Notes: a model not told the origin generated them from the sequence alone. A stretch of 64,000 bases of DNA from a virus (IMGVR_UViG_637000339_000002), one strand, 5' to 3'; positions 24,956 through 44,425 are shown, numbered from the stretch's first letter. Numbers and translations are program-made.

Positions 24956-25499
24956 TTCTTTGTATTTTTTTCCTGAAATCATCTAGCAAAGTCTGTAGCT
25001 CATTTTCACTTTTGGCTTCTTCAATCTTTCTTTTGGCTAAATCTTCAAGCTCTTCACATTTAATTATTGCTTTTACTGCTTTTTTCACTTTTTCCTCAAT
25101 TATTCTTGCCATTTCAATAACCGTAATACCACGGACTTTTGCTAAAGGTTCTATAATTTCTTTATCCTTTTCATCCTGGTCTGCTAGAATGCTTTTTGCG
25201 GCTTCCGCTTGAATCTCATAAGATTTAGCTTTTTGGTGAGAATGACCTGCATATTGGTGAGTATGATTATCATAATAGAAACGCATACTATCAAATGCAC
25301 AAAGCTTCGCATTATCCAGTAACTCCTTTTGTATATCTTCTTTAGTACGCTGAGCAATTTTTCCTCCTTCTGTTAAACAATAGCTTTTTTGCCAATCAAA
25401 ATCTTCTGGTGCTTCATACCAATCATTTTCAGTTGGCTTGCTTTCAAGTGTTGTTGTTTCTACTTGTTTATCATTTTCAAATCTAATGTAGATAGACAT
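24948..25499 (-). CDS. Hypothetical tail-associated protein (possible fibre assembly)
   Basis: Intact ORF in the tail operon. Confidence 0.6.
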   Translation of the reverse strand: MSIYIRFENDKQVETTTLESKPTENDWYEAPEDFDWQKSYCLTEGGKIAQRTKEDIQKELLDNAKLCAFDSMRFYYDNHTHQYAGHSHQKAKSYEIQAEAAKSILADQDEKDKEIIEPLAKVRGITVIEMARIIEEKVKKAVKAIIKCEELEDLAKRKIEEAKSENELQTLLDDFRKKIQRNG

Positions 25500-25505
25500 T
25501 GTTTG

Positions 25506-26942: not shown

Positions 26943-27127
26943 AAATTCAAAAAAGTTTCAAATCTAAATCGTTCAAAATTACTTTTAAGTTGATTATGTT
27001 TATTTTCTCTATTACTCATATCCTCATCTACTTTTTCTATAGCTCTGCGAATACGTACTACATCTTCCACTGCAATATTCTCTGGGTGTGGCAAAGGATA
27101 TCCGCGCCTCGTTTCATCATTTGGCAT
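26933..27127 (-). CDS. Small tail-associated hypothetical protein
   Basis: YPLPHPENIAVEDVVRIR motif; translationally coupled to its neighbour. Confidence 0.6.
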   Translation of the reverse strand: MPNDETRRGYPLPHPENIAVEDVVRIRRAIEKVDEDMSNRENKHNQLKSNFERFRFETFLNFWE

Positions 27128-27131
27128 TTTC

Positions 27132-28310
27132 TTACGTTATAACAACCCGCAAGTTTTTTACCTTTGGCCGATAAATAACCGTTCCACTTAAAACCAATTT
27201 TACCCTTGTTTCATTGCTATTAAAGTTTGTTAGTACATGAGTTCTCTCCACCCAATTTTCCCCAATAGGTTTTCCTGATGTTAAATTTACTAATTGCCAT
27301 CCTTTGACGCTTTGTTCCACATATGCTTTAACATCTGCAGTGCCAGGTATTAGCGCATCATAGGTAATTGTTATCTTAGTGTTAGCTCCTGCTGTAATGC
27401 TCCTTGTAACATAATCTCCGGACTCTGAAAGATTACCTAGAACTAGCTGTAACCCAGGATAGAGGACAGGACTTTTTTCTTTTGCACCTTTTAAATTTGC
27501 CTTTACTGTTAACTCTCCAGATAGTCTTTCACGCAGCGCGAGCGGCAAATTATCAGACAAAAAGTTTTCTTTCCCTTCTTCATCTGTTAAGATAAATTCT
27601 ACATTGGTATCAAATGCTACTTTTTCAACATTTGTTAAAACTATTAAATCTGATACGTTGTTTGCAGTGACTTTACCAAGATCAATAACATGAGAATTTT
27701 CACTAAATTTTGCAGCTAGTAGTCGAAACGTTAAATCTAAATTTTGATGCGGAGTCCAGGTACTTGCATTACTTGATGATAGTAATACTCCTACTTGATA
27801 TGGCTGACTCGTTACCCAGCGGCTATTTACTACATCATATTCGCCAAGCTCTGCTATTTTTACTGCTGTATCTGCATCATCGGTTAGCAAAACTATTGCA
27901 TATTCTCTGCTAGATTCACACCAGACAGGAGACCAAGTTATACGTGTTGCTGTGCCATCTATCTTTATATCTTTTGGCTCAATATAGCTTTCAGCAATGA
28001 CAGTCTGCGAGGGCATTCCCACTGCTGTTTCTCTAATCTGAACAACAACACGTTTTTTGCCTTTATTTACAAACCATAGCTCCACGCCTCCTATGTGTCT
28101 GCTCTCATTTAGCGTAAATGTTTGGGCTAAAGGATCAACTCGTCTTGCTGCGATCACTCTTCTTCTTTCTTCTATGGTAATAGTTTTTTTACCAGTATAA
28201 GTTGCCTCTCCATAGCTTCCTTTATCCCCATAAAACTGTACTAATTTAGTACCTGCTGGAATGTTTGCTGGGATTTTTATCTTTCCACTTATTCGTCCTT
28301 GATTTTCCAC
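27132..28310 (-). CDS. Structural protein (C-terminal partner of DUF4815)
   Basis: DPLAQTF, GVLLSSSNASTW. Confidence 0.7.
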   Translation of the reverse strand: MENQGRISGKIKIPANIPAGTKLVQFYGDKGSYGEATYTGKKTITIEERRRVIAARRVDPLAQTFTLNESRHIGGVELWFVNKGKKRVVVQIRETAVGMPSQTVIAESYIEPKDIKIDGTATRITWSPVWCESSREYAIVLLTDDADTAVKIAELGEYDVVNSRWVTSQPYQVGVLLSSSNASTWTPHQNLDLTFRLLAAKFSENSHVIDLGKVTANNVSDLIVLTNVEKVAFDTNVEFILTDEEGKENFLSDNLPLALRERLSGELTVKANLKGAKEKSPVLYPGLQLVLGNLSESGDYVTRSITAGANTKITITYDALIPGTADVKAYVEQSVKGWQLVNLTSGKPIGENWVERTHVLTNFNSNETRVKLVLSGTVIYRPKVKNLRVVIT

Positions 28311-28319
28311 TTTTTTCCT

Positions 28320-30248
28320 CTATGGTATGGGTTGAATGCTTAGGCCATCAAATTTTACTTCCTTAAGCTTTTCACCAGTTGCAAAACCTTCAATCTCAAA
28401 ATTTTGAGTTGCTTCTCGCATAAATTCAGTTTCGTATGAGGTACTTGACAGCAGCTCTGTTGTTTCTTTAACATTAAACACTCTGGTTACTGGACTTTTC
28501 CAATTCGTAGTAACCTCCGTCCAGTGATCTATATTTTTGTTCATGGTAACTTTTGCCGGGACTGGGTCAAAAGCTTGATATGGATTGATCTTTTCTCCTT
28601 TGGTCTGTAAAAGCTGCTCCAGTACCGGTTCAAGTTCATATGGCAACAAATAAGTTTTTTCTCCTCCATCAATATCAGCAATCGTTACATCTATTGGTAA
28701 AATTAGTTCCTTATTTACTATTGCTGCAGACTGCAAAATTCCTTGATCGCGCATATCATCATCAAAGAATGAATCAACAAATACTCCTTTTTTGGTGGTA
28801 GGTTCTCTTGAATTTGCATCATTGCGTAGACGTTCCTCTGCAACCAGCGCATAAAGATCATTTATTCCTTTTTTCATTGCTTCAAGCTCATTCATCGGTA
28901 CAGCATGAATAGCATTATTCACTATTTTTACCCCTTCGCCTTTTTTCCACGTCTGATGAATGTAGCAGAGCAAAAGTTGTCCACTAGGCGCTCTAGGCAT
29001 TGATGGTCGCCAAGGGTGAGAAATTCCTTTTATTCTTCTTACCACTCCTTTGCTATCGATAGTAATTAAATCATAGCGGGGCATTTTCCAGGTGTAATCA
29101 ATCAGAACCAAGCTGTTATCAACTGCTCCTTTTACTTTGCATCCCTGTTCACTTATATCTTCAGGGCTTACATGAGTACGACAGCGGTAGGTTATTTGAT
29201 AACTACTTCCAGGAGCTGGTTCTTTACCTGGTAATGACCAATCAACGTTTCCTGCGTTTAATTTGTAATCTATACTATTTTCATAAATAACATTGCCTTG
29301 TTTAACTTGAATAATCTCAAGTACTGCAGAGTCAGGTATCGGATCAATAGCTCCAGAGTATGAACCATGAGTAACAGTAATGGTTTTCTGAACAGTTATA
29401 TCTACTTTTTTAATTTCACTTATTGGAAAATCATTAACCTTCAGTTCCATTACTCTTTGGCTATTTGGCTGAAAAGTATGTGGTTCTGATTCAACTGATT
29501 TTATATCCGGATCTTCATCAAAAGAAACACGAATACTGTGAGGAAGTTCAATCTCATAGCCATCAACATGAGCTTTGCCCTCATTAATCACAAATATTTT
29601 TTTTCCTCCTTCTCCCTCTTCCTTTTGCAGGAACATTACTTCAAGACCATTTACGACGTAGGAACCATTTGCTTCTTTGTCATAACGAGCAAGAGCAGTA
29701 GTTACTATGTTTGCTTGTGGAGGTGGTGAATGTTCTATTAATACTCCATTTTCAATTTTATAGATTGGATAAAACTCTCCTTCAGAAAAACGTGGAGAAA
29801 GACCTTCTGCTTGATAACCCCAAATGGTGGAAACTTTAAGCCTTGCAGCTCCTACTTCCTGATAATTTCTTGTACCAATAGCAGGATCACGAAGGTTTTC
29901 ATCCTCAAGTTCTGTAATCGTAGATTCTACATAATAAACACCTATGCGAACTGTGGTACTCAGTGGAATAACAAATTCTTCTTTTTCAACTTTTCTAACT
30001 GCACCGCGCAGATAGATTTTTCCTCCCTCAAGTGTAACTTTACCAGTTTCTCTATCTATAATACAATTGCTTCCTGTTATAACATCACCATCACGAAATA
30101 TTGCATCGCCTATGCCTTTAATCTTAGAGAGAGCATACTCCTGAGTCTCGTTTAGTTCTGCAGACTGTAGACCTCTTCCTGCTAGAAACAAGCTTTTTTC
30201 GTATTCTTTGTCAGGATTAAAGCGGTTATAATAGGCGTTTAAAGTCAT
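28320..30248 (-). CDS. DUF4815-domain baseplate/tail protein
   Basis: YYNRFNPDK...GRGLQSAELNE...GAARLK. Confidence 0.8.
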   Translation of the reverse strand: MTLNAYYNRFNPDKEYEKSLFLAGRGLQSAELNETQEYALSKIKGIGDAIFRDGDVITGSNCIIDRETGKVTLEGGKIYLRGAVRKVEKEEFVIPLSTTVRIGVYYVESTITELEDENLRDPAIGTRNYQEVGAARLKVSTIWGYQAEGLSPRFSEGEFYPIYKIENGVLIEHSPPPQANIVTTALARYDKEANGSYVVNGLEVMFLQKEEGEGGKKIFVINEGKAHVDGYEIELPHSIRVSFDEDPDIKSVESEPHTFQPNSQRVMELKVNDFPISEIKKVDITVQKTITVTHGSYSGAIDPIPDSAVLEIIQVKQGNVIYENSIDYKLNAGNVDWSLPGKEPAPGSSYQITYRCRTHVSPEDISEQGCKVKGAVDNSLVLIDYTWKMPRYDLITIDSKGVVRRIKGISHPWRPSMPRAPSGQLLLCYIHQTWKKGEGVKIVNNAIHAVPMNELEAMKKGINDLYALVAEERLRNDANSREPTTKKGVFVDSFFDDDMRDQGILQSAAIVNKELILPIDVTIADIDGGEKTYLLPYELEPVLEQLLQTKGEKINPYQAFDPVPAKVTMNKNIDHWTEVTTNWKSPVTRVFNVKETTELLSSTSYETEFMREATQNFEIEGFATGEKLKEVKFDGLSIQPIP

Positions 30249-30264
30249 TTAATGCTAGAAAAAT

Positions 30265-30966
30265 TCAAAAAGTTACAACAAATGAAAAAGTTTCCCGAGT
30301 TGCAGCAGTTCTGATAAGTGGTACGGTATGTTCCAAAATCAATAAAATCCCATGTTCTTCTACATCTTGAGGTTCAAAATATCTCTGTCCTTCAGGTAAT
30401 TCTTCTTTTATTTTAGTACCAACCATAACCCCTAGCTCTCTGATTACTTGATTTGCTGCATCCGTGAAATCGAAAGTAAATTTGAGATAGAGATTATTAG
30501 TTGGTACATTTGAGGGCCTAAACCTTCCAGATGGAGTTATAAGTTCACCGTTTTCATCACCTGTGCAGAATAGCACTTCGTCTGCAGTACGTCTGCCAAG
30601 TTCATTGAGCAGTTTTTCAGAAGTTATCAGCTCTGGTGGTGTGCTTTCACTATACTCTACAGTAACTTTATCACTTACTGGAATAGAGCTATTTTCCGTA
30701 AGTTTTATTACACCAGTACTGCCATTAACTGTATAGTCAATACTTGGCTGATAAGTTGTTTGCCCTGTAAAAACCTTCACATCTTTAATAGGTTGACGAT
30801 CAAAAATAGGTTGATGATCAAATTTTATTTCACCCTTAACGAAAGTTTTTTCTACTTTGTGGCTACTTTCCCAACTTGAATCACCTGTTCCCCAAGCAAG
30901 ATGGATAGATTGCTTTTTGATGCTGGCTGCTATTGCTGCTCTTCCTGACTGTGTGAGTATTGACAT
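30265..30966 (-). CDS. Phage structural protein, first gene of the tail operon
   Basis: SGRAAIAA...HLAWGTG...IRELGV. Confidence 0.7.
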   Translation of the reverse strand: MSILTQSGRAAIAASIKKQSIHLAWGTGDSSWESSHKVEKTFVKGEIKFDHQPIFDRQPIKDVKVFTGQTTYQPSIDYTVNGSTGVIKLTENSSIPVSDKVTVEYSESTPPELITSEKLLNELGRRTADEVLFCTGDENGELITPSGRFRPSNVPTNNLYLKFTFDFTDAANQVIRELGVMVGTKIKEELPEGQRYFEPQDVEEHGILLILEHTVPLIRTAATRETFSFVVTF

Positions 30967-30979
30967 TTTCCCCCTATAT

Positions 30980-31014
30980 TATATATGTACGGTGAGTTCA
31001 AAATTCGTCCGCAA
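30980..31014 (-). promoter_or_regulatory. Conserved phage motif copy 1 (upstream of the tail operon)
   Basis: TTGCGGACGAATTTTGAACTCACCGTACATATATA, ending 13 nt before the ATG. Confidence 0.7.
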
Positions 31015-31048
31015 AAATCAAAATATTTTTTTATATCAGAAAAATTTT

Positions 31049-33097
31049 TTAGGAGAATAGCTCAGCTCCACAGCTAAACTTTCCAACGCCGCGAGCAAAT
31101 GGTCCGCTAGGAATGTCAAGCCATTTATCTTCTTTTGAACCAGTAGCCATTCCCTTAACCAGCTTCCGTGTTTGTAACAGCTCTTGAACTATACGCTCCA
31201 TTCTATCTCTTCCTATACTGTGAAACTCCTCAGGTAGTCTATGCCGCTGTTTATACACTCCTGTACTTCCTGTATGGGTAAATGGATGTCCAGAAATTGC
31301 TGCTCGTGTAATTGCAGTTATAAGATGCTGCTTTGAATCTTTTTCGTTCATATTTTTTATTCTTAATCTTTCAGTTATGTCCTCTAACAATCCTGTTTCT
31401 TCATTTCTTAAATAAGTGCGTAAAGTGCGATCAGCCAAACCGTTTGCTTTAACAATTGCTCCATAAAATAATGCGTTCTGTCTTACAGATTCTCCTATTG
31501 ATTTAAAAATTGTCGGTTTAGCTGCATCTTCCACAGACCAAAAAGCGTATGAACACCTAACACCATTAACAAGAGCAGATGTACCTCTAATGGCATCACG
31601 TGCTTGCTCAACAGTCGATATAGGTTTTTCACTTTTTGGCTTTCTCATATGATGAGCAGTAATTATTGATGCTCCAGTGCTACCTGCTAAATCAGATAAT
31701 AAAGAGATCAAATAATCGCCTACGGCTGGGTCAGTATTTAAATCAGCGTGCACAAATGATGCAAGTGGATCAAATACGATTAATTTTAAGTTTTTTATTT
31801 TATTAAGTTGTTTTGTTATCAATTCAAATTCAGGAGAAGTCTCTATAACTTTACCTGAAACACTCTTTATGATTGTAAGTGATCCACTAACATTTGGTAA
31901 TGGTACAATAAAGAGCCTATCCTTATATTTTAATCTCTCGCATTGTGAGTCAAGACGCTCTAAACGACGATGTATTTCACTCATATCATCTTCTGCAGAG
32001 AATATTACAACAGATCCATGTTCAGTAACCAAAGGACCAAAACCACATGGCTGATCTTTTCTACTCGCAACTTTCAGTGCTAAATCAAGCAGAAGCATAC
32101 CTTTACCAGTATCTCCCATTGCAGCTAGAATAGATGTCACTCCTAAAGGAAATAACCCTTCAACAAGAAACTTTTGCTCCGGTACTGGACCTATAAAACG
32201 TTCTACGCTCCATTCTTGAATATTAAGCAATTGCTTAACGATGATTTTTTTCGAGTTATTTTCAATGAATTCAGGAATATTCATCTTTTCTTCTATACCA
32301 TCAGCTGAATCCCATCCCTTTGGTTTATTCTCCGGTATTTCAAGAAGAGTAAGTGATAAAACACCAAGAAAAGTAAGCTTTTTCACAACTTTCTCAGCAT
32401 ATTGTTTACCTGGTTCATCATTGTCTGGCCAAATAATAACATGCTTGCCCTTAAGTGGTGACCAGTCTGTTTTTTCTATTGGTGCATTTGCTCCTAACAT
32501 TGCAGTTGTGGCAGTCATACCTTGCTCTATCAGAGCATCTGCACACTTTTCACCTTCAACTAAAATCACCTTATCAGATTTCACGATACCTGGAATATTA
32601 TATAAAGGCCTGGTCTCTGGTAGAGTAAAACTAGACCTTTTTACATCAAAAGGAAGATATCTTTTTCCTGAATCAGTGTTATAACGATAAACTGTAACAA
32701 TCACTTGATCACTTTCATCGTAATAGTTCCATGATGCCGTTGGTTGCCCCAGAGTGTTATTTTTTTCCGAATAACCAATCCACTTAGCAATATCTTCTAT
32801 CGTATCAGTAAATTGATTTTTTCCAGTAACAGCAGCCCAAAGATCAAAAATATCTCCTCCTTCTCCGGTAGAAAAATCATGCCATAATCCGGCTTTACTG
32901 CCAGTTAACTCCACTATCATACTTTGTCCTTTATTGCCTTGTAGATCACCTACATAGAACTTATCACCACGAAAAGTTCCTCTTGGCAGTAAATAAGAAA
33001 GACATGACCTTATATTTGATAGGAGTTGAGTTCTTAACTGTTCTTTCTTCCCTAATAATTTATAATGTCCATTTCTTTGTGAACAATAAATATCCAT
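31049..33097 (-). CDS. Primase-helicase (RepA-like; TOPRIM plus AAA_25)
   Basis: VEGEKCAD, WPDNDEPG, AMGDTGKG, FDPL, AHHMRK. Confidence 0.88.
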   Translation of the reverse strand: MDIYCSQRNGHYKLLGKKEQLRTQLLSNIRSCLSYLLPRGTFRGDKFYVGDLQGNKGQSMIVELTGSKAGLWHDFSTGEGGDIFDLWAAVTGKNQFTDTIEDIAKWIGYSEKNNTLGQPTASWNYYDESDQVIVTVYRYNTDSGKRYLPFDVKRSSFTLPETRPLYNIPGIVKSDKVILVEGEKCADALIEQGMTATTAMLGANAPIEKTDWSPLKGKHVIIWPDNDEPGKQYAEKVVKKLTFLGVLSLTLLEIPENKPKGWDSADGIEEKMNIPEFIENNSKKIIVKQLLNIQEWSVERFIGPVPEQKFLVEGLFPLGVTSILAAMGDTGKGMLLLDLALKVASRKDQPCGFGPLVTEHGSVVIFSAEDDMSEIHRRLERLDSQCERLKYKDRLFIVPLPNVSGSLTIIKSVSGKVIETSPEFELITKQLNKIKNLKLIVFDPLASFVHADLNTDPAVGDYLISLLSDLAGSTGASIITAHHMRKPKSEKPISTVEQARDAIRGTSALVNGVRCSYAFWSVEDAAKPTIFKSIGESVRQNALFYGAIVKANGLADRTLRTYLRNEETGLLEDITERLRIKNMNEKDSKQHLITAITRAAISGHPFTHTGSTGVYKQRHRLPEEFHSIGRDRMERIVQELLQTRKLVKGMATGSKEDKWLDIPSGPFARGVGKFSCGAELFS

Positions 33098-33114
33098 ACC
33101 TACCTGAAGAATTT

Positions 33115-34342
33115 TTATGTTCTAGCTATAACGTTAGCAGATTTCCAACATCCATTAATCTTGTTGATGAATTTTGTTGGTATAGATCTACCGTTTCTAA
33201 GTTCATATACTACTTGCAAGATATTTGTACGTTTATTGGGTTGAAATATTACTATTCCAGATGTATAAAAACTTCTTAAAGCATTAGCACCAACGAGAGC
33301 TTGAAATGGATTCTTTTCCAATGTAGAGGTAGATACTTTTTTGGTGTGATTTGTGATGATTATTCCAGCCATAGTATTAATCTTGGAACGTAGTTTTTCT
33401 ATTGCATGCTGTAGACCATAGTTAACGTAATTATAAGGAGAATCAATCACAACTAAATCAAACTTTTCCTCTACCATATTTTTTATTTTTTCTATACCTT
33501 CTTCATTTAAGGTCAAATTCATCTTGTTCGTCACAACTAAGTTTTCTGTTGCTAAATGAGGAAGTTTATTGAGTTGTTGTATACGTTCTCTAATATAATC
33601 ATATTCCATTTCATTTTGTAGATAGAATATTTTTAGCGGTCTTGTAGGTTTCATGCCAAGAAATGATCTTCCTGCTACCAGATGTACTAATAGAGAAAGA
33701 AGAAAATGACTTTTGCCAATCTTTGGAGTACCACCTATGACCAAAAGACCACCTGGTGTCAAAATTCTTGGGCCTATTATATCTTGTGGCATTGGTGATT
33801 TGTCATTTAAGTAATGATTTACAGAAAATGCTTTTCCTTCGTTTTGTTTTTCTTGTAATATGGAACTTCTTTCATCTTTACCGTTCAACCATGTTTCAGC
33901 AGAATCTATATTACCTTTAACTAAAGTCCAAAGGTCTATTATATTTCCTTTCTTTTCTTCGATCAGGTTGTACCAATTTCCTGCATTTTCTCCTTCCATT
34001 TCTACTGCCAATATAGAATTTATTTTGGTAAGATTTGCCTTCAGGTAACAAATAAGATAAACAATCTTTGATATTATTAATTAATAACGATTTTATTTTC
34101 AAAGCATTTTTAGATGAAAAATCCATAAAGTTCTCCTTGTTTATTCCAAATTTGTTCAACATATTTTTTAGACGTTTAAAGTCAAGATTAGCCAGCTCAC
34201 AAACAGTTTCAAAAGATCGTGAGCGAATCCATTGACAAGCCTCTTTTTTAAGTTTAGGGTTTTTTCCTGCTGCATCCTGAATAGCTCTAGTAATAACAGC
34301 AGCCCACAACTTTCCTTCGTCATACTTCAAAATGGCAACCAA
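33115..34342 (-). pseudogene. AAA_25 ATPase with a degenerate primase N-terminal domain, frameshifted near 34010
   Basis: CLSYLLPEG...FYIG in one frame; AGNWYN...IIDLW and GGTPKIGKS in the other. Confidence 0.65.
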
Positions 34343-34827
34343 TCATCTTGAAAATTTTTTTGTAATTCTGGAGTAATAACTGTAGTAATCCTATTTCTAT
34401 CTCCGTATGTATTATTAGTTTCAACGCCTACTTTTGCTGTAAACTCTAAATCGTTGAAATCAGCTATAGAGTTTATTCTTCTAGCAGTAACTGCTTTCTC
34501 TGAAGTGTCATTTGCATGAATATTTCTGGATGATTCCAAAATACTACGCAGCATAGAACGTCCAGATTCTCCCCAGATGTCTTCTTCACCTTCTGCTTTG
34601 CCATTTTTGATACCTATAATCTGAAAAATCTTGCGTTTTGCATATGGGCCTTCAGTGACGGTAAATTCTACATTTAAATAGATACTGCCAGTAGTGTAGT
34701 TTTTAGTGAACCAATTTTCATAACCTCCAGGCTTTATTGCCATTTTTACCTTGACTATTGTACCTTTCGGTATTAAACTGCTCTGCAGTTTTGCATTATT
34801 AAAATCAGTTAAAAAATCTTGTAGCAT
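34327..34827 (-). CDS. Putative ssDNA-binding / replication protein
   Basis: IPKG...YLNVEFTVTEGPYAKRKIF and acidic DDWLPF tail. Confidence 0.6.
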   Translation of the reverse strand: MLQDFLTDFNNAKLQSSLIPKGTIVKVKMAIKPGGYENWFTKNYTTGSIYLNVEFTVTEGPYAKRKIFQIIGIKNGKAEGEEDIWGESGRSMLRSILESSRNIHANDTSEKAVTARRINSIADFNDLEFTAKVGVETNNTYGDRNRITTVITPELQKNFQDDWLPF

Positions 34828-34864
34828 ACGCTCTCCTATAAGTTGACTTTAAAGTGAAAGTTAG

Positions 34865-36566
34865 CTATTCCATTAGCTGCCAATGACCATTTATCTTATC
34901 GACAAGTTTGTTTGGCACGCGTTCACCATTGCGAAGCTCAAATACTATCTGGCGTGCACTGCTTTCTTCATCATGAGCAAACATCACCATACCAGTACTG
35001 TAAAATCCACGTAAAGATCCAGCACCACTTAGGCCTTGAAATGGATCTTCTTCGAGCATCTTTTTCGATAATTTTTTTGTATGATGAGTGAGAGGTTGTC
35101 CGGAAACTAGTAAATTCAAGCATATTCCCTCTTTAACATAACCCTACTCATAGCTAGGTATATGAAATTCTCAGTGGATGTTGTGAGTAAATCATACTCC
35201 TTCGATAGCCTTCTATTCCTATTAACCCAAGCAAAAGTCCTTTCTACAACCCATCTTCTTGGCTGTACTTTAAACCCTTGTTCTCTTGTTGGTAGTAGCT
35301 CAGGTGGCGTATCTTTGTGCACCCAAAATCTACATGGAGGCCTTTTAACAATTTCAATATCTATGTCATATTCTTCCTTTATGTGATTCTTTAAATTTCT
35401 TCCTTGGTATCCCATGTCAGCCCACATTTTTTTAACTTTAGTATATTTTGTTCTCATATTGTTTAATGCTATTTTAATACCATCTCTATCATTTTCGTTA
35501 GCAGCGCCTACGTAACAACCTAGTATAAAACCCTGAGTGTCTGTAATTATATGCCTTTTTCTACCCTTTACTTTTTTACTTCCATCATAGCCTTTGATCC
35601 CCCCTTTTCTGTAGTCTTTACAGATTGACTATCTACTATACAGGCACTCGGCTGCTCATTCCTTCCTATTTTTCTTCTACTATATTTTGTAATTTCATAA
35701 TTCATTTTCTCAAAAATTCCCTGCTTCTTCCATTGCCTGAACTGCTCATACACAGTCTTCCATAGCGGAAAATCATTTGGTAAATACCGCCATTGACACC
35801 CTGTACGCAATACATAGAAAATTGCTTCTAATATTTCTCTTTTGCTATACTTTGGCGGCCTTCCTCCTTTCTTGTATGATACTCTGAAGTGTTTTTCTAT
35901 TCTTGACCATTCCCTTTCGCTTAGATCTGTTGGATACTTTTTTCTCATCTTTACCCCGTACTAAAATTTCAGATATTATAGCCTTTTACTTGTTTCCGGA
36001 CAACCTCTGAGTACAATACAAGCATCTGGATTGACAGCACTGCGTAGCTTCTCAAGAGTCTTTTGCAGAAAGAACAGCATAGCACTATTATCATTTTCAT
36101 TCCCATATTCACTGCTAAAGATGTTACGTAATGGATCTATGGCCAAAACATCAGGTTTAAAGCGTTCATTTACAATCTCCTTAATTCCACTTATTTCATC
36201 ATGATTAAATGATAAGTGCACTTTTGGCGTAATGATTAAGTTGTTAGCAGCTACATTCAAAAGTTCATTATCAAGTTGTTGCAAACGTTCTTTCATATAT
36301 TCAATTTCAGTTTGCATGTAGAAAATTTTTAAAGGTCTATTTGAAACCATACCAAGAAAAGGAACACCTGCAGCCATATGAACGAGCCATGAAATCAAAA
36401 AGTCACTTTTGCCGATTTTAGGTGGGCCACCCAGTACCAATAAGCCTCTTTTTGTTAAAATTCTTGGTGAGATTATATCCTCTGGTATTGGCGATCGATC
36501 GTCCAAGTATTCTTTCACACTGAAAAAAGGAATTTTTTGACCAATAGTTAAAAAGTTTTGTAGCAT
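34865..36566 (-). pseudogene. AAA_25 ATPase interrupted by IS5
   Basis: GGPPKIGKS. Removing the IS restores CIVLTHHTKK. Confidence 0.85.
35092..36007 (-). mobile_element. IS5-family element (ISWpi1-like), 916 bp
   Basis: TIRs GAGGTTGTCCGGAAAC; TGA target duplication. Two ORFs (35568-35948 and 35116-35457+) with an AAAAGGGGGG run at the junction; RRWVVERTFAW. Confidence 0.95.
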
Positions 36567-36577
36567 ATAATAACCTC

Positions 36578-37399
36578 CTATATGTTGGGCGTGACAGGTT
36601 GAATTGCAAAAGCTTTAGTTTTAATTTTTGTAAGAAGTTTTCCTAGATGCGGTTCTTCAACCATATTAAGGCAACCACTTCGATCTTTAGCAGGATATCC
36701 CCAAGAATTAATCGTCTGACAGACAAATGAACGAACCTCTGTACCATCATCTTTCTTGATTCCAACCATACTGATTACCTCATCAACAATACCTGGAATT
36801 TCACTTGCAGTTTTAGCTCCTTCACATTGAGGTAGCCAAGTTGAGCGATTGAAATCATCGAGGTATTGTCCAAGAGTTCCAACTGTAATGATGTCTTTAT
36901 TTGGAATATGTTGAAACTGATTGAGCCAAGCCATCATTTCTTGAGCAAGTAACCCGTAAGCAGCTCTCATATCTTGTTTTCCTGATCTTTCAGAAAAAGC
37001 TTCAGGTTGCATTTTTGACCATAAAAGACATAAACGCGAGGCTACTGTAATACTATTGATAAAAACACATCGATACTTGAGAAACTCCGAAGCAAGCTCT
37101 TTGTATTTACTGGATACATGCTCATAGTGTCTTTGGCTATATGCTGAGTCAGATTTTAACGCAGGATTAGGACCACCTATGAGACATGCAATATCTCTTG
37201 CCTCATTCCCAGTACGAATACTTACAGAATCCCCTTGCCAATCTTGAACAGCAAGTAAACCTGCCTCAAAATCAAGACAAAGTGTTGGTTCATTTATGGT
37301 CTTTAAGAGACTAGTTTTACCTATACCATAAGGACCAAAGATGACCATTTTTATACCTGTTTGAACTTTTAGCCGTTCATTGCTGTTCATTATTTTCAT
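36578..37399 (-). CDS. AAA_24 (Sak4-like) ATP-binding protein
   Basis: GPYGIGKT, DFEAG, PAKDRSG. Confidence 0.8.
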   Translation of the reverse strand: MKIMNSNERLKVQTGIKMVIFGPYGIGKTSLLKTINEPTLCLDFEAGLLAVQDWQGDSVSIRTGNEARDIACLIGGPNPALKSDSAYSQRHYEHVSSKYKELASEFLKYRCVFINSITVASRLCLLWSKMQPEAFSERSGKQDMRAAYGLLAQEMMAWLNQFQHIPNKDIITVGTLGQYLDDFNRSTWLPQCEGAKTASEIPGIVDEVISMVGIKKDDGTEVRSFVCQTINSWGYPAKDRSGCLNMVEEPHLGKLLTKIKTKAFAIQPVTPNI

Positions 37400-37418
37400 T
37401 TTTCTCCCAGTACCTAAA

Positions 37419-37454
37419 TATATATGTACGATGACCTAGGCAATTCGTCCGCAA
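37419..37454 (-). promoter_or_regulatory. Conserved phage motif copy 2 (upstream of the replication operon)
   Basis: TTGCGGACGAATTGCCTAGGTCATCGTACATATATA. Confidence 0.7.
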
Positions 37455-37492
37455 TTTGCAAAAAAAAATTTTGAGCAAATATAATCGAGAGC

Positions 37493-38026
37493 TTATAACT
37501 TCTCTAAAACTGAGAATTTATTGCGTATTCGTTCTAGTGTGCGATAGATAGTTGTCTTTGGTATTTTGGTTATTACAGAAACTTCAGTAATAGTAAATAC
37601 CTTAAGTAATTGACATAAATTACTATCTTTTTCAGACAAAGTTGAAATTATATTATTTATATCAGTGCGAATTATCGCCTCGATTTCCGAGTTCCTATGA
37701 TCTGGAATATCGTCGTTTATATCATCAAAAGTTATATTACGTTTTAGACATAACTGATTGCGTAACATATTGCGAGCACAATAATTAGCTAATCTAGCAA
37801 CGAAAGTACTAAAACTACTTCTTTTCTCATCGTGCTGGTTAAGATATTGCCAAACCTGACAAAAAAGCTCTTGTTCTATATCTTCGAGACTTTCGTTAAT
37901 AAAACAGCTTTTGGATTTAAGGCGCGAAGCTTGAAATCTCACATGTTTAACAATTGTAGAATCGATTCCTTGATAAGAATTCTTCATAAAAACTCCAAAA
38001 GTTTCATGAATAGAGATTTTTACCAA
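37493..38026 (-). CDS. Sigma-70/ECF-like RNA polymerase sigma factor
   Basis: Region 2 (EDIEQEL...SSFSTF) and region 4 HTH (ITEVS...KTTIYRTLERIR). Confidence 0.75.
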   Translation of the reverse strand: MVKISIHETFGVFMKNSYQGIDSTIVKHVRFQASRLKSKSCFINESLEDIEQELFCQVWQYLNQHDEKRSSFSTFVARLANYCARNMLRNQLCLKRNITFDDINDDIPDHRNSEIEAIIRTDINNIISTLSEKDSNLCQLLKVFTITEVSVITKIPKTTIYRTLERIRNKFSVLEKL

Positions 38027-38485
38027 GACTTTGTATGACTAATTTATTATAAAAAAGTAGTAATAATTTTTTTATCTAAAAGAATAAAATCTTTAAAAAT
38101 TAAAATAAGATTTAAACGTTTTGATACACTACTGAAGCTACTTTTTCATAGGTAAAAAACTACCAATTTCGTACCTAATTTCTGAATTACTAATTAGTAT
38201 TTCAGAAAGCAGTAATCGTTAAGTTATTGATAATATTGTCTTTTTTATGTTCTATTCCTAAAAGCCGTTTCTAAAGTTAAGTGGCTAAAATCGGCCAGTG
38301 AAGAGGATTTACGGATTACTGAAGTCTTATATATATTATATATATATTTAAATACAGGTAAAATATAATATATGATAATATAATAATATAAATATTGGCG
38401 TAATATAAGTTATGTAAAATAGTTATTAAGATAAGTAAAAACTCAAATGGCAGGATATGAAATTTTTTTTAATTTTTTTTCAAAA

Positions 38486-38520
38486 TTGCGGACGAATTTG
38501 CGAGTCATCGTACATATATA
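38486..38520 (+). promoter_or_regulatory. Conserved phage motif copy 3 (upstream of the packaging/head operon)
   Basis: TTGCGGACGAATTTGCGAGTCATCGTACATATATA. Confidence 0.7.
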
Positions 38521-38563
38521 TTATACAGGGCATTGAACTTTAATTACACAAAGGAGTTTTTGT

Positions 38564-39019
38564 ACGTCAATCTTAACGCTAGATCTCGGCAAGCAAACAG
38601 GCTGGGCAATTCTAACAGATGGAATAATTGAAAGTGGGAGCAAAAGCTTTCATGGTAGTCGTTTCAGCGGAGGTGGAATGTGTTTCTTAAACTTTTGCAA
38701 TTGGCTCAATTCTTTGAAAGACATTTCTGCAGTGTACTTTGAGGAGGTGAGAAGACATTTAGGAACTGATGCAGCCCATTGCTACGGTGGGTTTCTTGCA
38801 GTGCTGTCTGCTTGGTGTGAAGAGAACAATATTCCCTACCAAGGTGTTAATGTTAAAACTATAAAACGCTTTATAGCAGGCAAAGGCAATGCAAGTAAGA
38901 GTGAAGTTATTGAAGCGATACGTGAAAAAAGTTTTTCACCTAGAGATGATAATGAGGCCGATGCTTTGGCATTAATGTTCTATATTAGTAAAGATATTAA
39001 TAAGACGAAAAATCCATAA
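38564..39019 (+). CDS. RuvC-like Holliday junction resolvase (start codon reads ACG)
   Basis: AAGGAG RBS, then ACG-SILTLDLGKQTGW in frame with FEEV, GKGNASK and DDNEADA. Confidence 0.75.
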   Translation, partial: TSILTLDLGKQTGWAILTDGIIESGSKSFHGSRFSGGGMCFLNFCNWLNSLKDISAVYFEEVRRHLGTDAAHCYGGFLAVLSAWCEENNIPYQGVNVKTIKRFIAGKGNASKSEVIEAIREKSFSPRDDNEADALALMFYISKDINKTKNP

Positions 39020-39132
39020 AAAGTGGGTCCTTTCAGCCAGAATGGCGGATTTGGTGAGTTCAACCCCAGGCCTTCTTTAGCGTCAGAGATATTTTGAATA
39101 TTAACTTTTTAATTATTAAGGATTTAAATTAT

Positions 39133-40359
39133 ATGAATTTAGCAATCCACTACTATCCTGTTGAAAACCTCGTCGAATATAAGCGTAATCCTCGTAAAAA
39201 TGATGATGTAGTAAATAGAATGTATGCTTCAATCAGGGAATTTGGCTTTCGTATACCAATAGTTGCAAAAAGCGATGGAACTGTGGTTGATGGTCATTTA
39301 AGACTTAAAGCAGCAAGAAAACTTGGTATGGAGAGTATTCCAGTGGTCTTAAGTGATAATTTAAATGAACCACAAACTAAAGCTTTTCGGTTACTGGCAA
39401 ATCAATCAGCTAACTGGGCAAAGTGGGACGATGAGCTTTTGAAAGTGGAAATTCAAGAGTTAGAAGATTTGCAGTTTGATCTTAAAATGACTGGATTTGA
39501 ATTGGAAAAAGTTCAACGTTTTCTCGATGATTTTGATGGAAAAGAAGAAGTAGAAAGAGGAGTTTTGGAGTTAATTGATAAAAAGGTAGAAATAGCAAAA
39601 CCAGGGGATTTATGGATTTTAGGTGATCATAGAATCTATTGCGGTGATAGCTGCGTAGTTGAATCATTTAAAGCAGTATTAGATGATAAAATGGCAGATA
39701 TTACTGTTTGTGATCCTCCATATAACGTTGATTATGGTAGTAGCCAGGAGAGAGAAGATAAAAAAATATTGAATGATAATCAAGGTGAAAAGTATGAGCT
39801 TTTTCTCTACGACATCTGTTCCAATATTTTAGCATATACGAAAGGAGCAATTTACATCTGCATATCATCATCAGAGTTTTCAACGCTGCAAAAAGCATTT
39901 GAGGAAGCAGGAGGAAAATGGTCAACATTTATCATTTGGGCAAAGAATCATTTTACGCTAGGCAGGTCTGATTATCAAAGACAATACGAAGCAATGCTCT
40001 ATGGATGGAAAAGCGGCAATAAACGTGAGTGGCATGGAGGTAGAAATCAAAGTGATCTATGGTTTTATGATAAGCCAATACATAACTCACTGCACCCAAC
40101 AATGAAGCCAGTAGAGCTAATGGAGAAAGCAATAGTTAATAGCAGCAGACCTGGGGATACTGTACTTGATCCATTTAGCGGTTCTGGCAGCACACTGATT
40201 GCATGTGAGAGAACAGGAAGAATTTGCAGAACAATAGAGCTAGATTCAAAATTTGTAGATGTAACGATAAAACGTTGGCAAGTATACACAGGTAGGGAAG
40301 CAATTCTTTCTGGTACTGGCAAAACTTTTGCACAAATTCAAGAAGAAAAACAGCAATAA
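39133..40359 (+). CDS. ParB-domain DNA N6/N4 methyltransferase
   Basis: NPRKN, VDGHLR, DPPYN, HPTMKP, DPFSGSG. Confidence 0.92.
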   Translation: MNLAIHYYPVENLVEYKRNPRKNDDVVNRMYASIREFGFRIPIVAKSDGTVVDGHLRLKAARKLGMESIPVVLSDNLNEPQTKAFRLLANQSANWAKWDDELLKVEIQELEDLQFDLKMTGFELEKVQRFLDDFDGKEEVERGVLELIDKKVEIAKPGDLWILGDHRIYCGDSCVVESFKAVLDDKMADITVCDPPYNVDYGSSQEREDKKILNDNQGEKYELFLYDICSNILAYTKGAIYICISSSEFSTLQKAFEEAGGKWSTFIIWAKNHFTLGRSDYQRQYEAMLYGWKSGNKREWHGGRNQSDLWFYDKPIHNSLHPTMKPVELMEKAIVNSSRPGDTVLDPFSGSGSTLIACERTGRICRTIELDSKFVDVTIKRWQVYTGREAILSGTGKTFAQIQEEKQQ

Positions 40360-40372
40360 AGGGGCAAAAGAA

Positions 40373-40852
40373 GTGGAAAAGATCACACAAACGGAATGGG
40401 CAAGAGAGATAGGAGTTTCAAATCAATATGTCTGTTATTTAGTAAAAAAAGGAATAATTGAGTTGGAGAATGGTTTGGTAAATAGAGAACAAGCAAATGA
40501 AGCAGTAGCGGCAATAAGAGATCCAAGTCAGCCACTTAGGAGGAAAAATCCAGAAAACGAAAATACAAGTAACCTTTCCACGATGTTGCTAAAAACTCGA
40601 ATAAAAAATGAAATGGAACGAGGTAAACTTCTTGAGGCGAAAGCTAAGGCTGAGATTGGTGAACTTGTAGCAGTAGAGGAAGTAAAGCGCGATGCATTTA
40701 ATGTAGCAAGAGTTGTACGTAATAATTTGCTTAATATTCCAAATAGAGTTTCAGCACTGCTTGCATCACTGAGTGACACTGAAAAGATTCATATGGCGCT
40801 AACCGAAGGGATTACAAACTCATTACAAGAATTATCTAATATTAAGTTTTAA
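40373..40852 (+). CDS. Terminase small subunit (Nu1-like)
   Basis: N-terminal wHTH TQTEWAREIGVS, coiled coil, GELV...LLNIP; position upstream of gpA. Confidence 0.7.
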   Translation: MEKITQTEWAREIGVSNQYVCYLVKKGIIELENGLVNREQANEAVAAIRDPSQPLRRKNPENENTSNLSTMLLKTRIKNEMERGKLLEAKAKAEIGELVAVEEVKRDAFNVARVVRNNLLNIPNRVSALLASLSDTEKIHMALTEGITNSLQELSNIKF

Positions 40853-40855
40853 ATA

Positions 40856-42337
40856 ATGTCTGCTAACTTAAGTTTAGAATTAATAAAGTGTCTTATTAAT
40901 CAACCAGGAGTGGATGTAAATGTTAGAGGATTAAATGGGAAAACCCCACTACATTATGCAGTAGAAATTAACGAGCTTAGTATGGTTGCTCTCTTACTAA
41001 ATAGGAAAAATATTAATCCACTGATCACTGATGATAATGGTAAAAGTGCGCTGGATTGTGCAAGAGAAGAGATATTACAAGCACTAATCAATCACAAATA
41101 TGGATTGGAGAAAGATAGCTTACTTCACTTAGCTGCGATGTTGAATGAAGCAAATGCTGTAAGGTTTTTACTCGACAAAGGGACTAATGTTAATGAGCAG
41201 AATGCTTTACTACATACACCGTTACACTTAGCGGCAGGAGCTGGGCATGAACAAATAGTAGAAATTTTAATTAGAGAAGGAAATGCGGACAAAGATGTTC
41301 TTGATGCGAGAAATCATGCAGCAATTCATTATGCAGTAAACAACAAGAAGCTAGGAGTAGTAAAATTACTTTCAAATCTTGGTGCGAATGTTAATGTAGT
41401 TGGCAGCGGCAGAAATGCAATGAAATTATCTTCTTTGCACGTAGCTATAAGTAGTAGTAATTACGACGAAAGGGACTTATGTTTAGATATTGTAAGATGC
41501 TTAATAAATGTTCCTAATGCTGGGGTTAACTTACAAGATTATGAAAATAAAACGCCACTACATTATGCTGAAAGGCTGAAAACAATAGAAGTTTTACTAA
41601 CGCGAGAAGATATAGATCCTTTAATTAAGGATGATAATGGCAAGACACCATTTTGTTATGCAAAAGAAGCAAATAGATTAGATATAGTAAAGATTTTAGT
41701 AAGTAATAGATACGGAGCTGATAAAAACAGTTTGCTTCATTTAGCTGCCAGAAAAGGATATGAAGACCTAATAGACGGTATTCTTGGTGAAGGAGTTGAA
41801 ATAGATGCTGTAGATGAGAGTGGAAAAACGGGAATTTATGTTGCTGTAAAGCATGGTCACTTTAACGTAGTAAAGTTGTTGCTAAAGAGAGGAGCAGATG
41901 CCACGGATGTTTTTCAGTATGCAATAATAACGAACAACGCAAAATTAATAAAATTACTGAGCAAAGAGAAGGAAATAGTGTTATTTGGAAGACAGAAGAA
42001 CTTTCCAACATTTCATTTATTGAGCAATAAATATTTTGAAGAAAGGAAAATAGCAGACAAAAAAATAAAGAAATATATCAATATCGTCTGTGTTTCTATA
42101 ACAGTATGTGCAATAGTGATAGTGGGAATTTACCCTAACATTATAGCTGCGGTAATGGTGGGAATAGTTGCGCTCATAGCTGCAATAGCAATGAGTAATT
42201 TAACTCAGAAGTACATAGAAGAAGCACTTGAAAAGAAAATGTTTATTGAACTCGAAAGTGAGAAAACAAGTGAGTGCAGTTCTATTTTAAGTGATGTTGA
42301 GGTATCATCTAATGATGGTGAAGAGCTAGCGATATGA
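40856..42337 (+). CDS. Ankyrin repeat protein with two C-terminal TM segments
   Basis: Multiple TPLH repeats; overlaps the terminase start. Confidence 0.92.
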   Translation: MSANLSLELIKCLINQPGVDVNVRGLNGKTPLHYAVEINELSMVALLLNRKNINPLITDDNGKSALDCAREEILQALINHKYGLEKDSLLHLAAMLNEANAVRFLLDKGTNVNEQNALLHTPLHLAAGAGHEQIVEILIREGNADKDVLDARNHAAIHYAVNNKKLGVVKLLSNLGANVNVVGSGRNAMKLSSLHVAISSSNYDERDLCLDIVRCLINVPNAGVNLQDYENKTPLHYAERLKTIEVLLTREDIDPLIKDDNGKTPFCYAKEANRLDIVKILVSNRYGADKNSLLHLAARKGYEDLIDGILGEGVEIDAVDESGKTGIYVAVKHGHFNVVKLLLKRGADATDVFQYAIITNNAKLIKLLSKEKEIVLFGRQKNFPTFHLLSNKYFEERKIADKKIKKYINIVCVSITVCAIVIVGIYPNIIAAVMVGIVALIAAIAMSNLTQKYIEEALEKKMFIELESEKTSECSSILSDVEVSSNDGEELAI

Positions 42338-44157
42338 TATATGCTACATCTTTTTCTGAAGGTTTAAAGCCAGATCCACTACTTAAAGTGTCAGAGTGGG
42401 CGAATGAGTATCGAGTTTTAGCGCCAACTGCAGCATCAGAGCCAGGTAAATGGAGAACAGAAAGAACTCCTTATTTAAAAGAAATCATGGATTCACTTTC
42501 TCCGTCCTCACCAGCAGAAAAAGTAGTATTCATGAAAGGAGCGCAGATTGGAGGAACAGAAGCTGGTAACAATTGGATAGGCTATATTATAGATCAGACT
42601 CCTGGTCCAATGTTAGTTGTGCAGCCAACAGTTGAAATGGGAAAGCGTTGGTCAAAAGGAAGATTTGCGCCGTTAATAGAGAGTACGCCATGTTTAAAGA
42701 GTAAAGTAAAAGACCCAAGGTCAAGAGACTCAGGCAATACTGTACAAAGTAAGGAATTTCCAGGTGGAATAGTAGTAATAACCGGAGCAAATAGCAGTGT
42801 AGCACTGAGATCTATGCCAGTAAAATATCTCTTTCTTGATGAAATAGACGCCTATCCAGGAGATTCAGGTGGTGAAGGAGATCCAGTGCTGCTCAGTATT
42901 GCTCGAACTAATACATTTGCACGGCGAAAGATTTTTTTAGTATCAACACCAACGATTCATGGAATAAGCAGAATTGAGAAAGAATTTGAAGCAACAGATA
43001 AGCAGTACTTTTTTGTACCATGTCCGTATTGTAATTACTATCAAGTTCTAAAATGGTCACAAATTAAATGGGAAAACAACGACTCAAGAACAGCACATTA
43101 TGTCTGCACTGAATGTAGCGGCAAAATAGAAAATCATCAAAAGACAGAGATGCTTGAGCGTGGAGAATGGAGACCTACTAATAGAGTAAAAGGTGAGAAA
43201 AAAGGATTTCATCTTTCAAGTCTTTATAGTCCAGTAGGCTGGTATAGCTGGACTCAAGCAGTAGAAGATTTTCTTCATGCAAAAGAAAGTGAACAATTAC
43301 TAAAAGTATGGATAAATACTACGCTTGGAGAAACCTGGGTAGACAAAGGAGAAGTACCAGATTGGAAGCAATTATTTAACAGGAGAGAATTTTTTCCCGT
43401 AGGCACAGTACCTAGGAGAGAAGTGGTGCTTACTGCAGGAGTAGATGTCCAAAAAGATCGTTTAGAAGTAGAAGTTGTAGCATGGGGAAAAAGCCGCGAA
43501 AGTTGGTCAATAGAATACCGAGTATTTGAAGGTGATACTGGAAGAGGAGAAGTATGGGGAAAACTCTCTGAGCTCTTAAATCATCATTTTATCGGTGAAA
43601 ATGGTCTTGAATACATGATAAGTATGATGGCGGTTGATGCTGGGTATGCGACACAAGAAGTATACAATTGGGTAAGAGGTCATCAAGGCTCTGGAAGAGT
43701 AATGGCAGTGAAAGGTGTAAATAAAGCTCTAGTACCACTTAGCAGCCCAAGTAGAGTAGATATAACAGTTGGTGGTCAAAAGCTAAAAAGAGGAATAAAG
43801 CTCTGGCCAGTGGGAGTATCGATTTTAAAGTCAGAACTTTTTCAATTACTTAATGTTTTAAAGGACGGTGAAGAAGCTCCAGCAGGATACTGTCATTTTC
43901 CCGAGTATGCACCTGAATATTTTAAGCAGCTAACGGCAGAGCAATTAGTCAGCAAAGTAGTAAAAGGTTATACCAAACAAGAGTGGCAAAAGGTAAGAGA
44001 AAGAAATGAAGTATTAGACTGTAGGATTTATGCAAGAACAGCATCTATTGCGCTTGGAATCGATCGTTGGCCAGAGAGTAAATGGAATAGTTTAAGTGAA
44101 AAACCAGAAAGTAAAAAATCAAAGAAAATAGTGAAAAGCAAATGGATCAGCGAGTAG
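42334..44157 (+). CDS. Terminase large subunit (lambda gpA family)
   Basis: KGAQIGGTE, LDEID, STPT, GVDVQ, RNEVLDC. Confidence 0.95.
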   Translation: MIYATSFSEGLKPDPLLKVSEWANEYRVLAPTAASEPGKWRTERTPYLKEIMDSLSPSSPAEKVVFMKGAQIGGTEAGNNWIGYIIDQTPGPMLVVQPTVEMGKRWSKGRFAPLIESTPCLKSKVKDPRSRDSGNTVQSKEFPGGIVVITGANSSVALRSMPVKYLFLDEIDAYPGDSGGEGDPVLLSIARTNTFARRKIFLVSTPTIHGISRIEKEFEATDKQYFFVPCPYCNYYQVLKWSQIKWENNDSRTAHYVCTECSGKIENHQKTEMLERGEWRPTNRVKGEKKGFHLSSLYSPVGWYSWTQAVEDFLHAKESEQLLKVWINTTLGETWVDKGEVPDWKQLFNRREFFPVGTVPRREVVLTAGVDVQKDRLEVEVVAWGKSRESWSIEYRVFEGDTGRGEVWGKLSELLNHHFIGENGLEYMISMMAVDAGYATQEVYNWVRGHQGSGRVMAVKGVNKALVPLSSPSRVDITVGGQKLKRGIKLWPVGVSILKSELFQLLNVLKDGEEAPAGYCHFPEYAPEYFKQLTAEQLVSKVVKGYTKQEWQKVRERNEVLDCRIYARTASIALGIDRWPESKWNSLSEKPESKKSKKIVKSKWISE

Positions 44158-44160
44158 TAA

Positions 44161-44394
44161 ATGTATAACGAAGATTATCTAATTCAAGTCGAAGAAGCGA
44201 TAAAGAAACTACAAAACGGAGAGCGAGTAGTATCAATTGCATATGGTGACCATGTTGTAAGATATGCTGAAGTAGATATAAATGATTTACTAAGCTTAAG
44301 ACAACGTATTAAGGCTGAATTGAAAATTGCAGGTATGAAGCCAAAGAGAAAAATTGTTTTTTCAACAAATAAAGGGGTTGACAAAATTATGTAA
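44161..44394 (+). CDS. gpW-like head-to-tail joining protein
   Basis: GERVVSIAYGD; position after gpA. Confidence 0.8.
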   Translation: MYNEDYLIQVEEAIKKLQNGERVVSIAYGDHVVRYAEVDINDLLSLRQRIKAELKIAGMKPKRKIVFSTNKGVDKIM

Positions 44395-44406
44395 AAATGT
44401 TATAGT
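44378..44406 (+). promoter_or_regulatory. Sigma70 promoter of TA moron 2
   Basis: TTGACA-17 nt-TATAGT; nearly identical to 23226-23254. Confidence 0.7.
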
Positions 44407-44425
44407 TTAGAGTTGATATCTTACA

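Follow-up and report, generated by a model that had tools for sequence, protein, structure and literature searches.

A bipartite promoter motif heading three modules of phage WO, probably read by the phage's own ECF-type sigma factor

A 64,000-nucleotide (nt) stretch of a phage WO prophage of Wolbachia (IMGVR_UViG_637000339_000002; the whole provirus record comprises 101,979 bases) carries three copies of a bipartite sequence motif, which lie ahead of its tail, replication/recombination and head/packaging modules. The whole stretch is called the window here, and positions without another label are counted from its first letter. We propose that the three copies are phage WO promoters, most likely read by host core RNA polymerase together with the phage's own extracytoplasmic function (ECF)-type sigma factor, and that the types of promoter and sigma factor have co-diversified. 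Published transcription starts at two of the three copies and the co-variation of promoter type with sigma allele carry this proposal.

Results

Exact matches to the motif occur three times in the window, at 30980-31014 (copy 1, minus strand), 37419-37454 (copy 2, minus strand) and 38486-38520 (copy 3, plus strand), precisely where the initial annotation of this sequence had placed them, and none of 100 dinucleotide-preserving shuffles contained any match. Searching the two blocks singly with mismatches added sites at chance level only: block 1, with up to two mismatches, returned the three exact sites together with two-mismatch sites at 65, 43943 and 47521 (1.04 expected), and block 2, with up to three mismatches, returned the same three sites and a single three-mismatch site at 59073. 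Across the 101,979-base record these three copies were the only ones found with up to three mismatches, the reversed-pattern control giving zero. The annotated surroundings also proved accurate, as every copy is preceded by an A/T tract (three of three; ~31015-31045 at copy 1) and lies in sense orientation close to a gene. The interval from motif end to gene start is 13 nt for copy 1 (ATG 30966), 19 nt for copy 2 (ATG 37399) and 43-49 nt for copy 3 (RuvC-like frame at 38564/38570). In the literature, the 9-letter core of block 1 was met in primers and unrelated sequences only, among the matches listed.

Copies 2 and 3 function as promoters, of the replication/recombination module and of the head/packaging module respectively, because published transcription starts lie just downstream of sequence that is letter-identical to the window. 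These starts come from the Cappable-seq supplements of PMC12558409, which list differentially expressed starts only, so that an absent row does not equate to an absent start. Before the AAA_24 gene, the tables give pTSS_-_570541 (48.07 counts per million, cpm) with a 5' untranslated region (UTR) of 16 nt, and the printed upstream and UTR sequence matches the window letter for letter. The start falls at 37415 on the minus strand, 4 nt past the end of copy 2, with the 16-nt UTR reaching ATG 37399; measured from it, the GGAC box occupies -35 to -32 and the type-specific block -15 to -11. Before the RuvC-like gene, pTSS_+_571654 (48.38 cpm, 5' UTR of 42 nt), again printed with sequence identical to the window, corresponds to 38528 on the plus strand, 8 nt past the end of copy 3. 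The initial annotation had looked to starts just downstream of the motif as a test of its promoter prediction, and for these two copies they are present.

Two further sets of listed starts are relevant. A second strain, whose motif is of another type, has two copies in tandem ahead of its RuvC-like gene, each followed by a start 11-12 nt after the specific block (30.85 and 24.4 cpm). The same data contain a canonical TTGACA/TATAAT promoter within the window, which is entirely unlike the motif copies and drives the second primase-helicase gene from a start at 54813 (446.8 cpm).

Copy 1, the predicted promoter of the tail-fibre/baseplate-wedge gene and the tail module behind it, probably fires as well. 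The resident motif type stands at this site in 16 of 20 distinct tail-fibre network (TFN) upstream regions of relatives. The leader from copy 1 to the ATG (30966-30980, minus strand) is 13 nt, as compared with ~22 nt in the close relatives L016 and L048, and if transcription were to start 4-8 nt past the motif, the transcript leader would scarcely exceed the ribosome-binding G run.

The motif family is almost confined to prophages. A pattern covering four motif variants found eight exact sites in four whole Wolbachia genomes, all of them beside sigma genes, with zero for the reversed-pattern control. Extended to 60 Wolbachia genomes and up to one mismatch, the search returned 56 places distributed over 18 genomes, compared with 18 matches for the control; 50 of the places match exactly and mostly form triplets spaced ~1 kb and 5.5-6.5 kb, and two of the six one-mismatch places (in G018 and G041) look like chance. 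Frequent occurrence at non-phage sites, which had been named beforehand as grounds for abandoning the regulon, was found neither in the 60 genomes nor in the provirus record. Sigma loci numbered five among genome contigs and eight among viral contigs; whole-genome searches were then used, and these located 65 sigma homologues, spread over 30 of the 60 genomes.

We then compared, across 28 loci, the sequences that precede the AAA_24, TFN, RuvC-like and primase genes, taken by coordinate. Seven of the 103 regions were exact duplicates, leaving 96 distinct ones for an unsupervised motif search, which recovered one common 36-nt layout in 53 of them: 19 of 26 AAA_24 regions, 16 of 20 TFN regions, 12 of 23 RuvC-like regions and 6 of 27 primase regions. 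Types E and L, which have a different upstream box, were missed by this common layout. In order, the layout consists of an A/T tract, a G(G/A)AC box, ~16 nt of spacer, a type-specific block and a TATAT run, with a spacer whose length is constant to within 1 nt (offset 0 in 46 sites, offset 1 in the other 7). Start codons follow the model end at a distance of 15-36 nt for AAA_24, 12-27 nt for TFN (with one at 67) and either 21-49 or 139-151 nt for the RuvC-like gene. Two blocks around a free spacer, a sense orientation before genes and, at copies 2 and 3, a start downstream are the features of an alternative-sigma promoter, and the three copies have this layout in common with more than 50 sites in other WO prophages.

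Within one prophage, the same promoter type recurs before two to four of the AAA_24, TFN, RuvC-like and primase genes. On reading the upstream regions, as opposed to assigning them automatically, we distinguish at least 12 putative types, labelled A to L, of which the window represents type A. A per-position comparison of 38 within-locus pairs with 1087 between-locus pairs (the latter with sigmas of <60% identity) separates the parts of the promoter. Conserved throughout are the G-A-C of the upstream box and, farther on, the G together with the TATAT run, and mid-spacer positions show no greater similarity within one prophage than between different ones. Model positions 6, 9-12, 24-26 and 28 are 79-89% identical within a prophage as opposed to 29-56% between prophages. 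Specificity therefore resides in the upstream as well as the downstream half of the promoter, the bases beside the -10 region among them, and specificity bases placed there point to a sigma factor rather than an upstream activator.

The sigma gene itself is the fast-diverging gene of the region. In prophages of other types its product is 30-57% identical to that of the window, whereas identities are mostly 78-90% for AAA_24, 71-98% for the RuvC-like protein and 76-96% for DUF4815. For co-variation, the sigma-adjacent promoter of each locus was scored by Smith-Waterman alignment with the distal upstream regions of all loci; the score matrix excludes L026, which is nearly a copy of L025, as well as L019 and L020, whose sigma genes are broken or truncated, and L104 (sigma open reading frame, ORF, clipped in extraction) was left out of both these and the per-position statistics. 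The mean score was 22.0 for sigma identities below 50% (578 pairs), 25.2 at 50-70% (82 pairs), 43.7 at 70-90% (28 pairs) and 44.6 at 90% or more (14 pairs), with 41.4 obtained within the same locus (27 loci). A Mantel test against sigma identity gave r 0.235, reached by 2 of 5000 permutations, as compared with r 0.047 against AAA_24 identity, reached by 1399 of 5000. When the comparison was restricted to pairs whose AAA_24 identity is 80% or more, the score was 22.3 where the sigmas were <60% identical (438 pairs) and 42.0 where they were at least 70% identical (26 pairs), and in 17 of 27 loci the locus's own distal sites outscored every locus with a sigma of <60% identity. At the level of sequence, promoter type tracks the sigma allele and not the conserved neighbouring genes; co-variation of motif and sigma was among the checks that the initial annotation had proposed. 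A reading of the sigma-4 helix residues against the type of the -35 box was suggestive but uninformative, F-type phages using both box variants, and was set aside.

An ECF-like sigma gene had been placed between copies 2 and 3, and it is there, at 37493-38026 on the minus strand, as the sole gene between the two copies, with no further variable gene in that 1.1-kb stretch. The ORF extends from TTG 38026; the likely start is ATG 37987, which yields 164 amino acids as in the 97%-identical cluster P0001, so that the protein comprises 164-177 residues depending on the start. It passes the cut-off of the ECF superfamily model NCBIfam TIGR02937 (49.6 bits, cut-off 42.9), aligning with model positions 25-161 of 165, and it matches PHROG 1740. 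The family is large, as a ten-homologue profile finds 4732 representative proteins at E <=0.001. A 50-sequence profile matches the solved structures of SigH, SigW, SigE, RpoE and CnrH across both domains, with alignments to SigW, SigE and RpoE that begin at query position 14-20 and matches that reach position 167, and a 27-sequence alignment of sigma homologues keeps the usual region-2 layout. In an AlphaFold model (pLDDT 85, pTM 0.48), two helical domains are separated by a disordered linker at 85-96, helices following at 97-162, and Foldseek searches with the whole two-domain model place nothing but sigma factors in the top rows, the majority of them ECF, although the E-values are weak. A sigma-2 domain, a sigma-4 domain and nothing beyond these two, in a protein of the expected ~160-200 residues, lead us to classify it as a two-domain ECF-type (group 4) sigma factor, which is predicted to bind core polymerase and to initiate transcription.

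No co-oriented ORF of 50 amino acids or more that might encode an anti-sigma factor lies beside the sigma gene in the window. Nor does any copy of the motif lie upstream of the sigma gene in the window, as the initial annotation had recorded. An adjacent anti-sigma gene and autoregulation, both common though not universal in the ECF family, are not seen here; in L104 and L105, which belong to another type, a primase gene headed by the motif precedes the sigma gene. The 459 bases upstream of the window's sigma gene (38027-38485, minus strand) form an AT-rich non-coding stretch with no motif copy, presumed to hold the promoter and leader of the sigma gene; sigma-70-like hexamer pairs occur several times on its minus strand, not above chance. 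For the second strain mentioned above, a published orphan start, oTSS_+_1015048 (317.8 cpm), is placed 538 nt ahead of the strain's sigma gene, where the sequence aligns with the segment around ~38334 of the window, which is conserved in F-type prophages (PMC12558409, listed starts). This hints at a sigma transcript with a long leader.

Discussion

The combination of published starts, promoter comparison and protein classification enabled us to propose a model for the regulation of phage WO, in which the reader of the three copies would be the phage sigma factor. In this model, the sigma gene would have its own promoter, unlike the three copies, within the AT-rich stretch that precedes it, and its product would join host core RNA polymerase and recognise the motif promoters, starting transcription of the replication genes from copy 2, the head/packaging genes from copy 3 and the tail genes from copy 1. 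Expression of the sigma factor would be the rate-limiting step towards lytic growth, and may be the step that commits the phage to it, the lytic switch suggested by the initial annotation; the two mapped promoters run at ~48 cpm in uninduced cell culture. Sigma gene and promoters would have diversified in step with each other across phage WO, into at least 12 specificity types.

Several observations weigh against this model. In 10 of the 27 loci, the locus's own distal sites fail to outscore every unrelated locus; these misses are short-block types, sites farther upstream and mosaics, and the Smith-Waterman score underrates short-block types (E and L) and sites lying farther upstream (L018 and L102). 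In mosaic loci, the type of a promoter disagrees with that of the resident sigma: type G tail promoters are found in an E-type phage (L027, ~14780-14880) and a B-type phage (L017, ~4950-5050), and a K-like tail site in a G-type phage (L094, ~14330-14430). This suggests either exchange of modules without the matching sigma gene or use of the sigma factor of a co-resident prophage. At the protein level, the Pfam region-2 family Sigma70_r2 (PF04542) scores 24.3 bits, right at the cut-off of 24, no Pfam region-4 family was found for the window's sigma at E <=0.01 (the relative P0009 does carry PF08281), and the best Foldseek E-value is 1.9e-3, with a TM of ~0.3.

The expression data also include points that count against the model. 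For the identical-sequence strain, the differential-expression tables of PMC12558409 have no row for copy 1 or for the sigma gene, these tables holding differentially expressed starts only. The two mapped starts change only partly in parallel with temperature, by log2 -2.23 and +0.76 at 34 C for 48 h and by -0.06 and -2.68 at 21 C for 24 h. In the second strain, one antibiotic contrast shifts the presumed sigma start by log2 -6.0 as opposed to -0.59 for a motif-driven start. Moreover, the distance of the start past the motif is unequal between the two mapped copies, as noted above.

The alternative that survives best, although we consider it unlikely, is that host RpoD reads the motifs as promoters without a -35 element, with the TATAT run serving as the -10, the upstream box being at most the target of an unknown helper and the sigma-like gene a bystander. 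Such a reading would suit the activity of the two mapped promoters in uninduced cell culture (~48 cpm) with no start listed for the sigma gene, and the presence of the A/T-rich run in all types. Copy 3 also allows a five-out-of-six match to the housekeeping -10 hexamer at -11 to -6, which counts against a dedicated phage sigma factor as well as for RpoD. However, a sigma-70 scan of 30800-38800 called 32 sites (32.2 expected) and passed over all three copies, TTGACA and TATAAT 16-18 nt apart are found in none of them, and the best -10-like hexamer of copy 2 falls at -7 to -2, too near the start. In PMC12558409, only sigma-70-like motifs of the canonical TTGACA/TATAAT form are given for Wolbachia starts and the bipartite motif is not described, and the window promoter of this canonical form is nine times stronger than the mapped copies. 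Reading by RpoD would, in addition, leave unexplained why the bases beside the -10 change together with the sigma allele.

It is also conceivable, if rather improbable, that the sigma-like protein acts as a DNA-binding activator of the host holoenzyme, in the manner of temperate-phage late activators or the sigma-like activators of gene transfer agents. Co-variation reveals a specific partner and not its mode of action, the Pfam support for region 2 is marginal, and small phage late activators located just before the packaging genes are known, RinA being an example (PMC3152322). Conversely, the protein clears the ECF superfamily cut-off across both of its domains, aligns end to end with solved ECF sigmas and retains their usual region-2 layout, and the specificity positions lie in both promoter halves at a sigma-like spacing. 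That the motif is mainly a repressor operator, a caveat the initial annotation had itself raised, or a replication, packaging or recombination site that overlaps promoters by chance is scarcely credible: the sites do lie at module borders, but they share no dyad symmetry (copies 1 and 3 have no inverted repeat and copy 2 has A/T palindromes only), they keep a strict sense orientation and a fixed short distance to start codons, the listed transcription starts lie just downstream, and no other variable gene stands in the 1.1 kb between copies 2 and 3.

As with bacterial ECF sigmas such as RpoE and SigW, the WO protein combines a sigma-2 and a sigma-4 domain, and the WO promoter pairs a -35 box that ends in AC with a short specific block close to the -10; the specific block is CGT in several types, and different pairs are mutually distinct. 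The window differs from the bacterial systems in that the sigma gene has no anti-sigma gene beside it and no motif ahead of it. The CGT word, which the initial annotation had linked to ECF -10 elements, lies nearer to the start in textbook ECF promoters than in the WO motif. In copy 2 it occupies -15 to -13, 2-3 nt farther upstream than in those promoters, and is then followed by the invariant TATAT run, a displacement which also counts against an ECF-type reader.

To our knowledge, nothing is known of how phage WO switches its genes on, and Wolbachia are not yet engineerable. A promoter code together with a candidate master factor would make gene switching in WO testable in E. coli within days, would offer mutually distinct sigma/promoter pairs already working in Wolbachia, and would allow one to judge from sequence if a prophage still forms a single regulated unit, by asking if its promoters match its own sigma. 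It would also account for the two starts that had been lying uninterpreted among those listed in PMC12558409. The statement in the initial annotation that no description of this promoter was known agrees with our survey, which found none in the literature on phage WO and Wolbachia prophage sigma factors, promoters, transcription starts and regulation, including PMC4201733. The sigma gene of WO is mentioned only in passing in reviews and genome papers (Kent 2011, PMC3173496), and the available text of Kent 2011 does not contain the word 'promoter'. We regard this as a first promoter code for phage WO, while phage-encoded sigma factors with promoters of their own are already known in other phages.

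The closest of these by description, rather than by sequence, are the sigmas of phiEco32 and Salmonella phage 7-11, with their middle/late promoters (PMC8948821), where, as we propose for WO, a small phage protein of the sigma-70 family steers host polymerase to a phage consensus before blocks of genes. Those are lytic podophages of enterobacteria, whereas WO is temperate and tailed, its host is an obligate intracellular alphaproteobacterium, and the WO sigma and promoter come in many interchangeable specificity types. phiEco32 also has a helper, gp79 (PMC12276001), and no such helper is known in WO. RinA (PMC3152322) and the sigma cascades of SPO1 and T4 (PMC13401047 and PMC2988020) resemble WO in that a phage specificity factor beside the packaging genes activates morphogenesis genes. 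RinA, however, belongs to another protein family and acts on one promoter before terS, whereas in WO one factor would serve three to four promoters, including those of replication genes.

It is quite possible, although on balance we lean slightly against it, that the sigma gene and its three to four matching promoters form interchangeable specificity cassettes, of at least 12 types, which make co-resident prophages transcriptionally independent, and that some WO-derived elements listen in on foreign sigmas. In lambdoid immunity regions, a small regulator-plus-sites cassette differs between otherwise near-identical phages. There the regulator is a repressor with clustered operators, whereas the WO cassette would pair a positive factor, the sigma, with dispersed promoters. 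If the idea holds, the cassettes would be the positive-acting counterpart of lambdoid immunity regions, and the listening elements would behave as satellites or as modules shared between phages.

Arrangements that hold promoter-like elements of several types were observed in two settings. In L104 (~7130-7500) and L105 (~7000-7370), a primase-helicase gene is preceded by a tandem array of three promoter-like elements, each of a different type, and followed by a divergent sigma gene of its own, and lone motif copies in G013, G021 and G058 belong to the same tandem primase-led arrangement. This primase-led element could answer to sigmas of several WO types. In the window, the region 54945-55015 (minus strand) contains a promoter-like type K element (~54955-54999), ~350 nt upstream of the second primase-helicase gene (52411-54606), which shows 83% mean column identity to the sites before the tail genes of L104 and L105. 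As the record holds a single sigma gene, of type A, this element would be an orphan promoter of foreign specificity; no start for it is given among the differentially expressed starts listed in PMC12558409.

Other features of the prophage

The tail module downstream of copy 1 spans 19679-30966 on the minus strand. Its first gene, directly after the motif, is BW3TFN (baseplate wedge/tail-fibre network; Pfam 1.5e-42), and the module further includes DUF4815, sheath, tube, tape measure and GpU genes. The sheath ORF of the window (23769-24491, minus strand) encodes 240 amino acids and matches only the 3' part of the 1176-base sheath gene of KX522565 (L015, 15666-16841); the gene may be split or truncated here.

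The replication/recombination module downstream of copy 2 (31049-37399, minus strand) consists of AAA_24 (Sak4-like) and AAA_25 genes and a Toprim-AAA_25 primase-helicase. One of its AAA_25 genes is split by an IS4/5-family element with DUF4096 and DDE ORFs (35116-35948, minus strand). In raw reads from four single-cell RNA runs, coverage within 30500-39500 was confined to the region of this element (35015-36218) and the phage genes were uncovered, which is uninformative either way for the promoters. A scan of 30800-38800 for terminators found none.

The head/packaging module downstream of copy 3 (38570-49435, plus strand) comprises RuvC-like, ParB-methylase, small terminase, ankyrin, large terminase, portal, S49 protease and major capsid genes. 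In the RuvC-like gene (38564-39019, plus strand), ACG stands where the relatives L032 and L039 have ATG, and the published table of PMC12558409 gives the start as ATC, 42 nt after the transcription start, an ACG/ATC arrangement that is common to all type-A prophages seen. Beyond the head module follows a group II intron-type reverse transcriptase gene (50170-51246, plus strand), and the region 55314-63680 holds a SNF2 helicase gene together with a sugar-modification cluster (nucleotidyl transferase, epimerase and glycosyltransferase/radical SAM).

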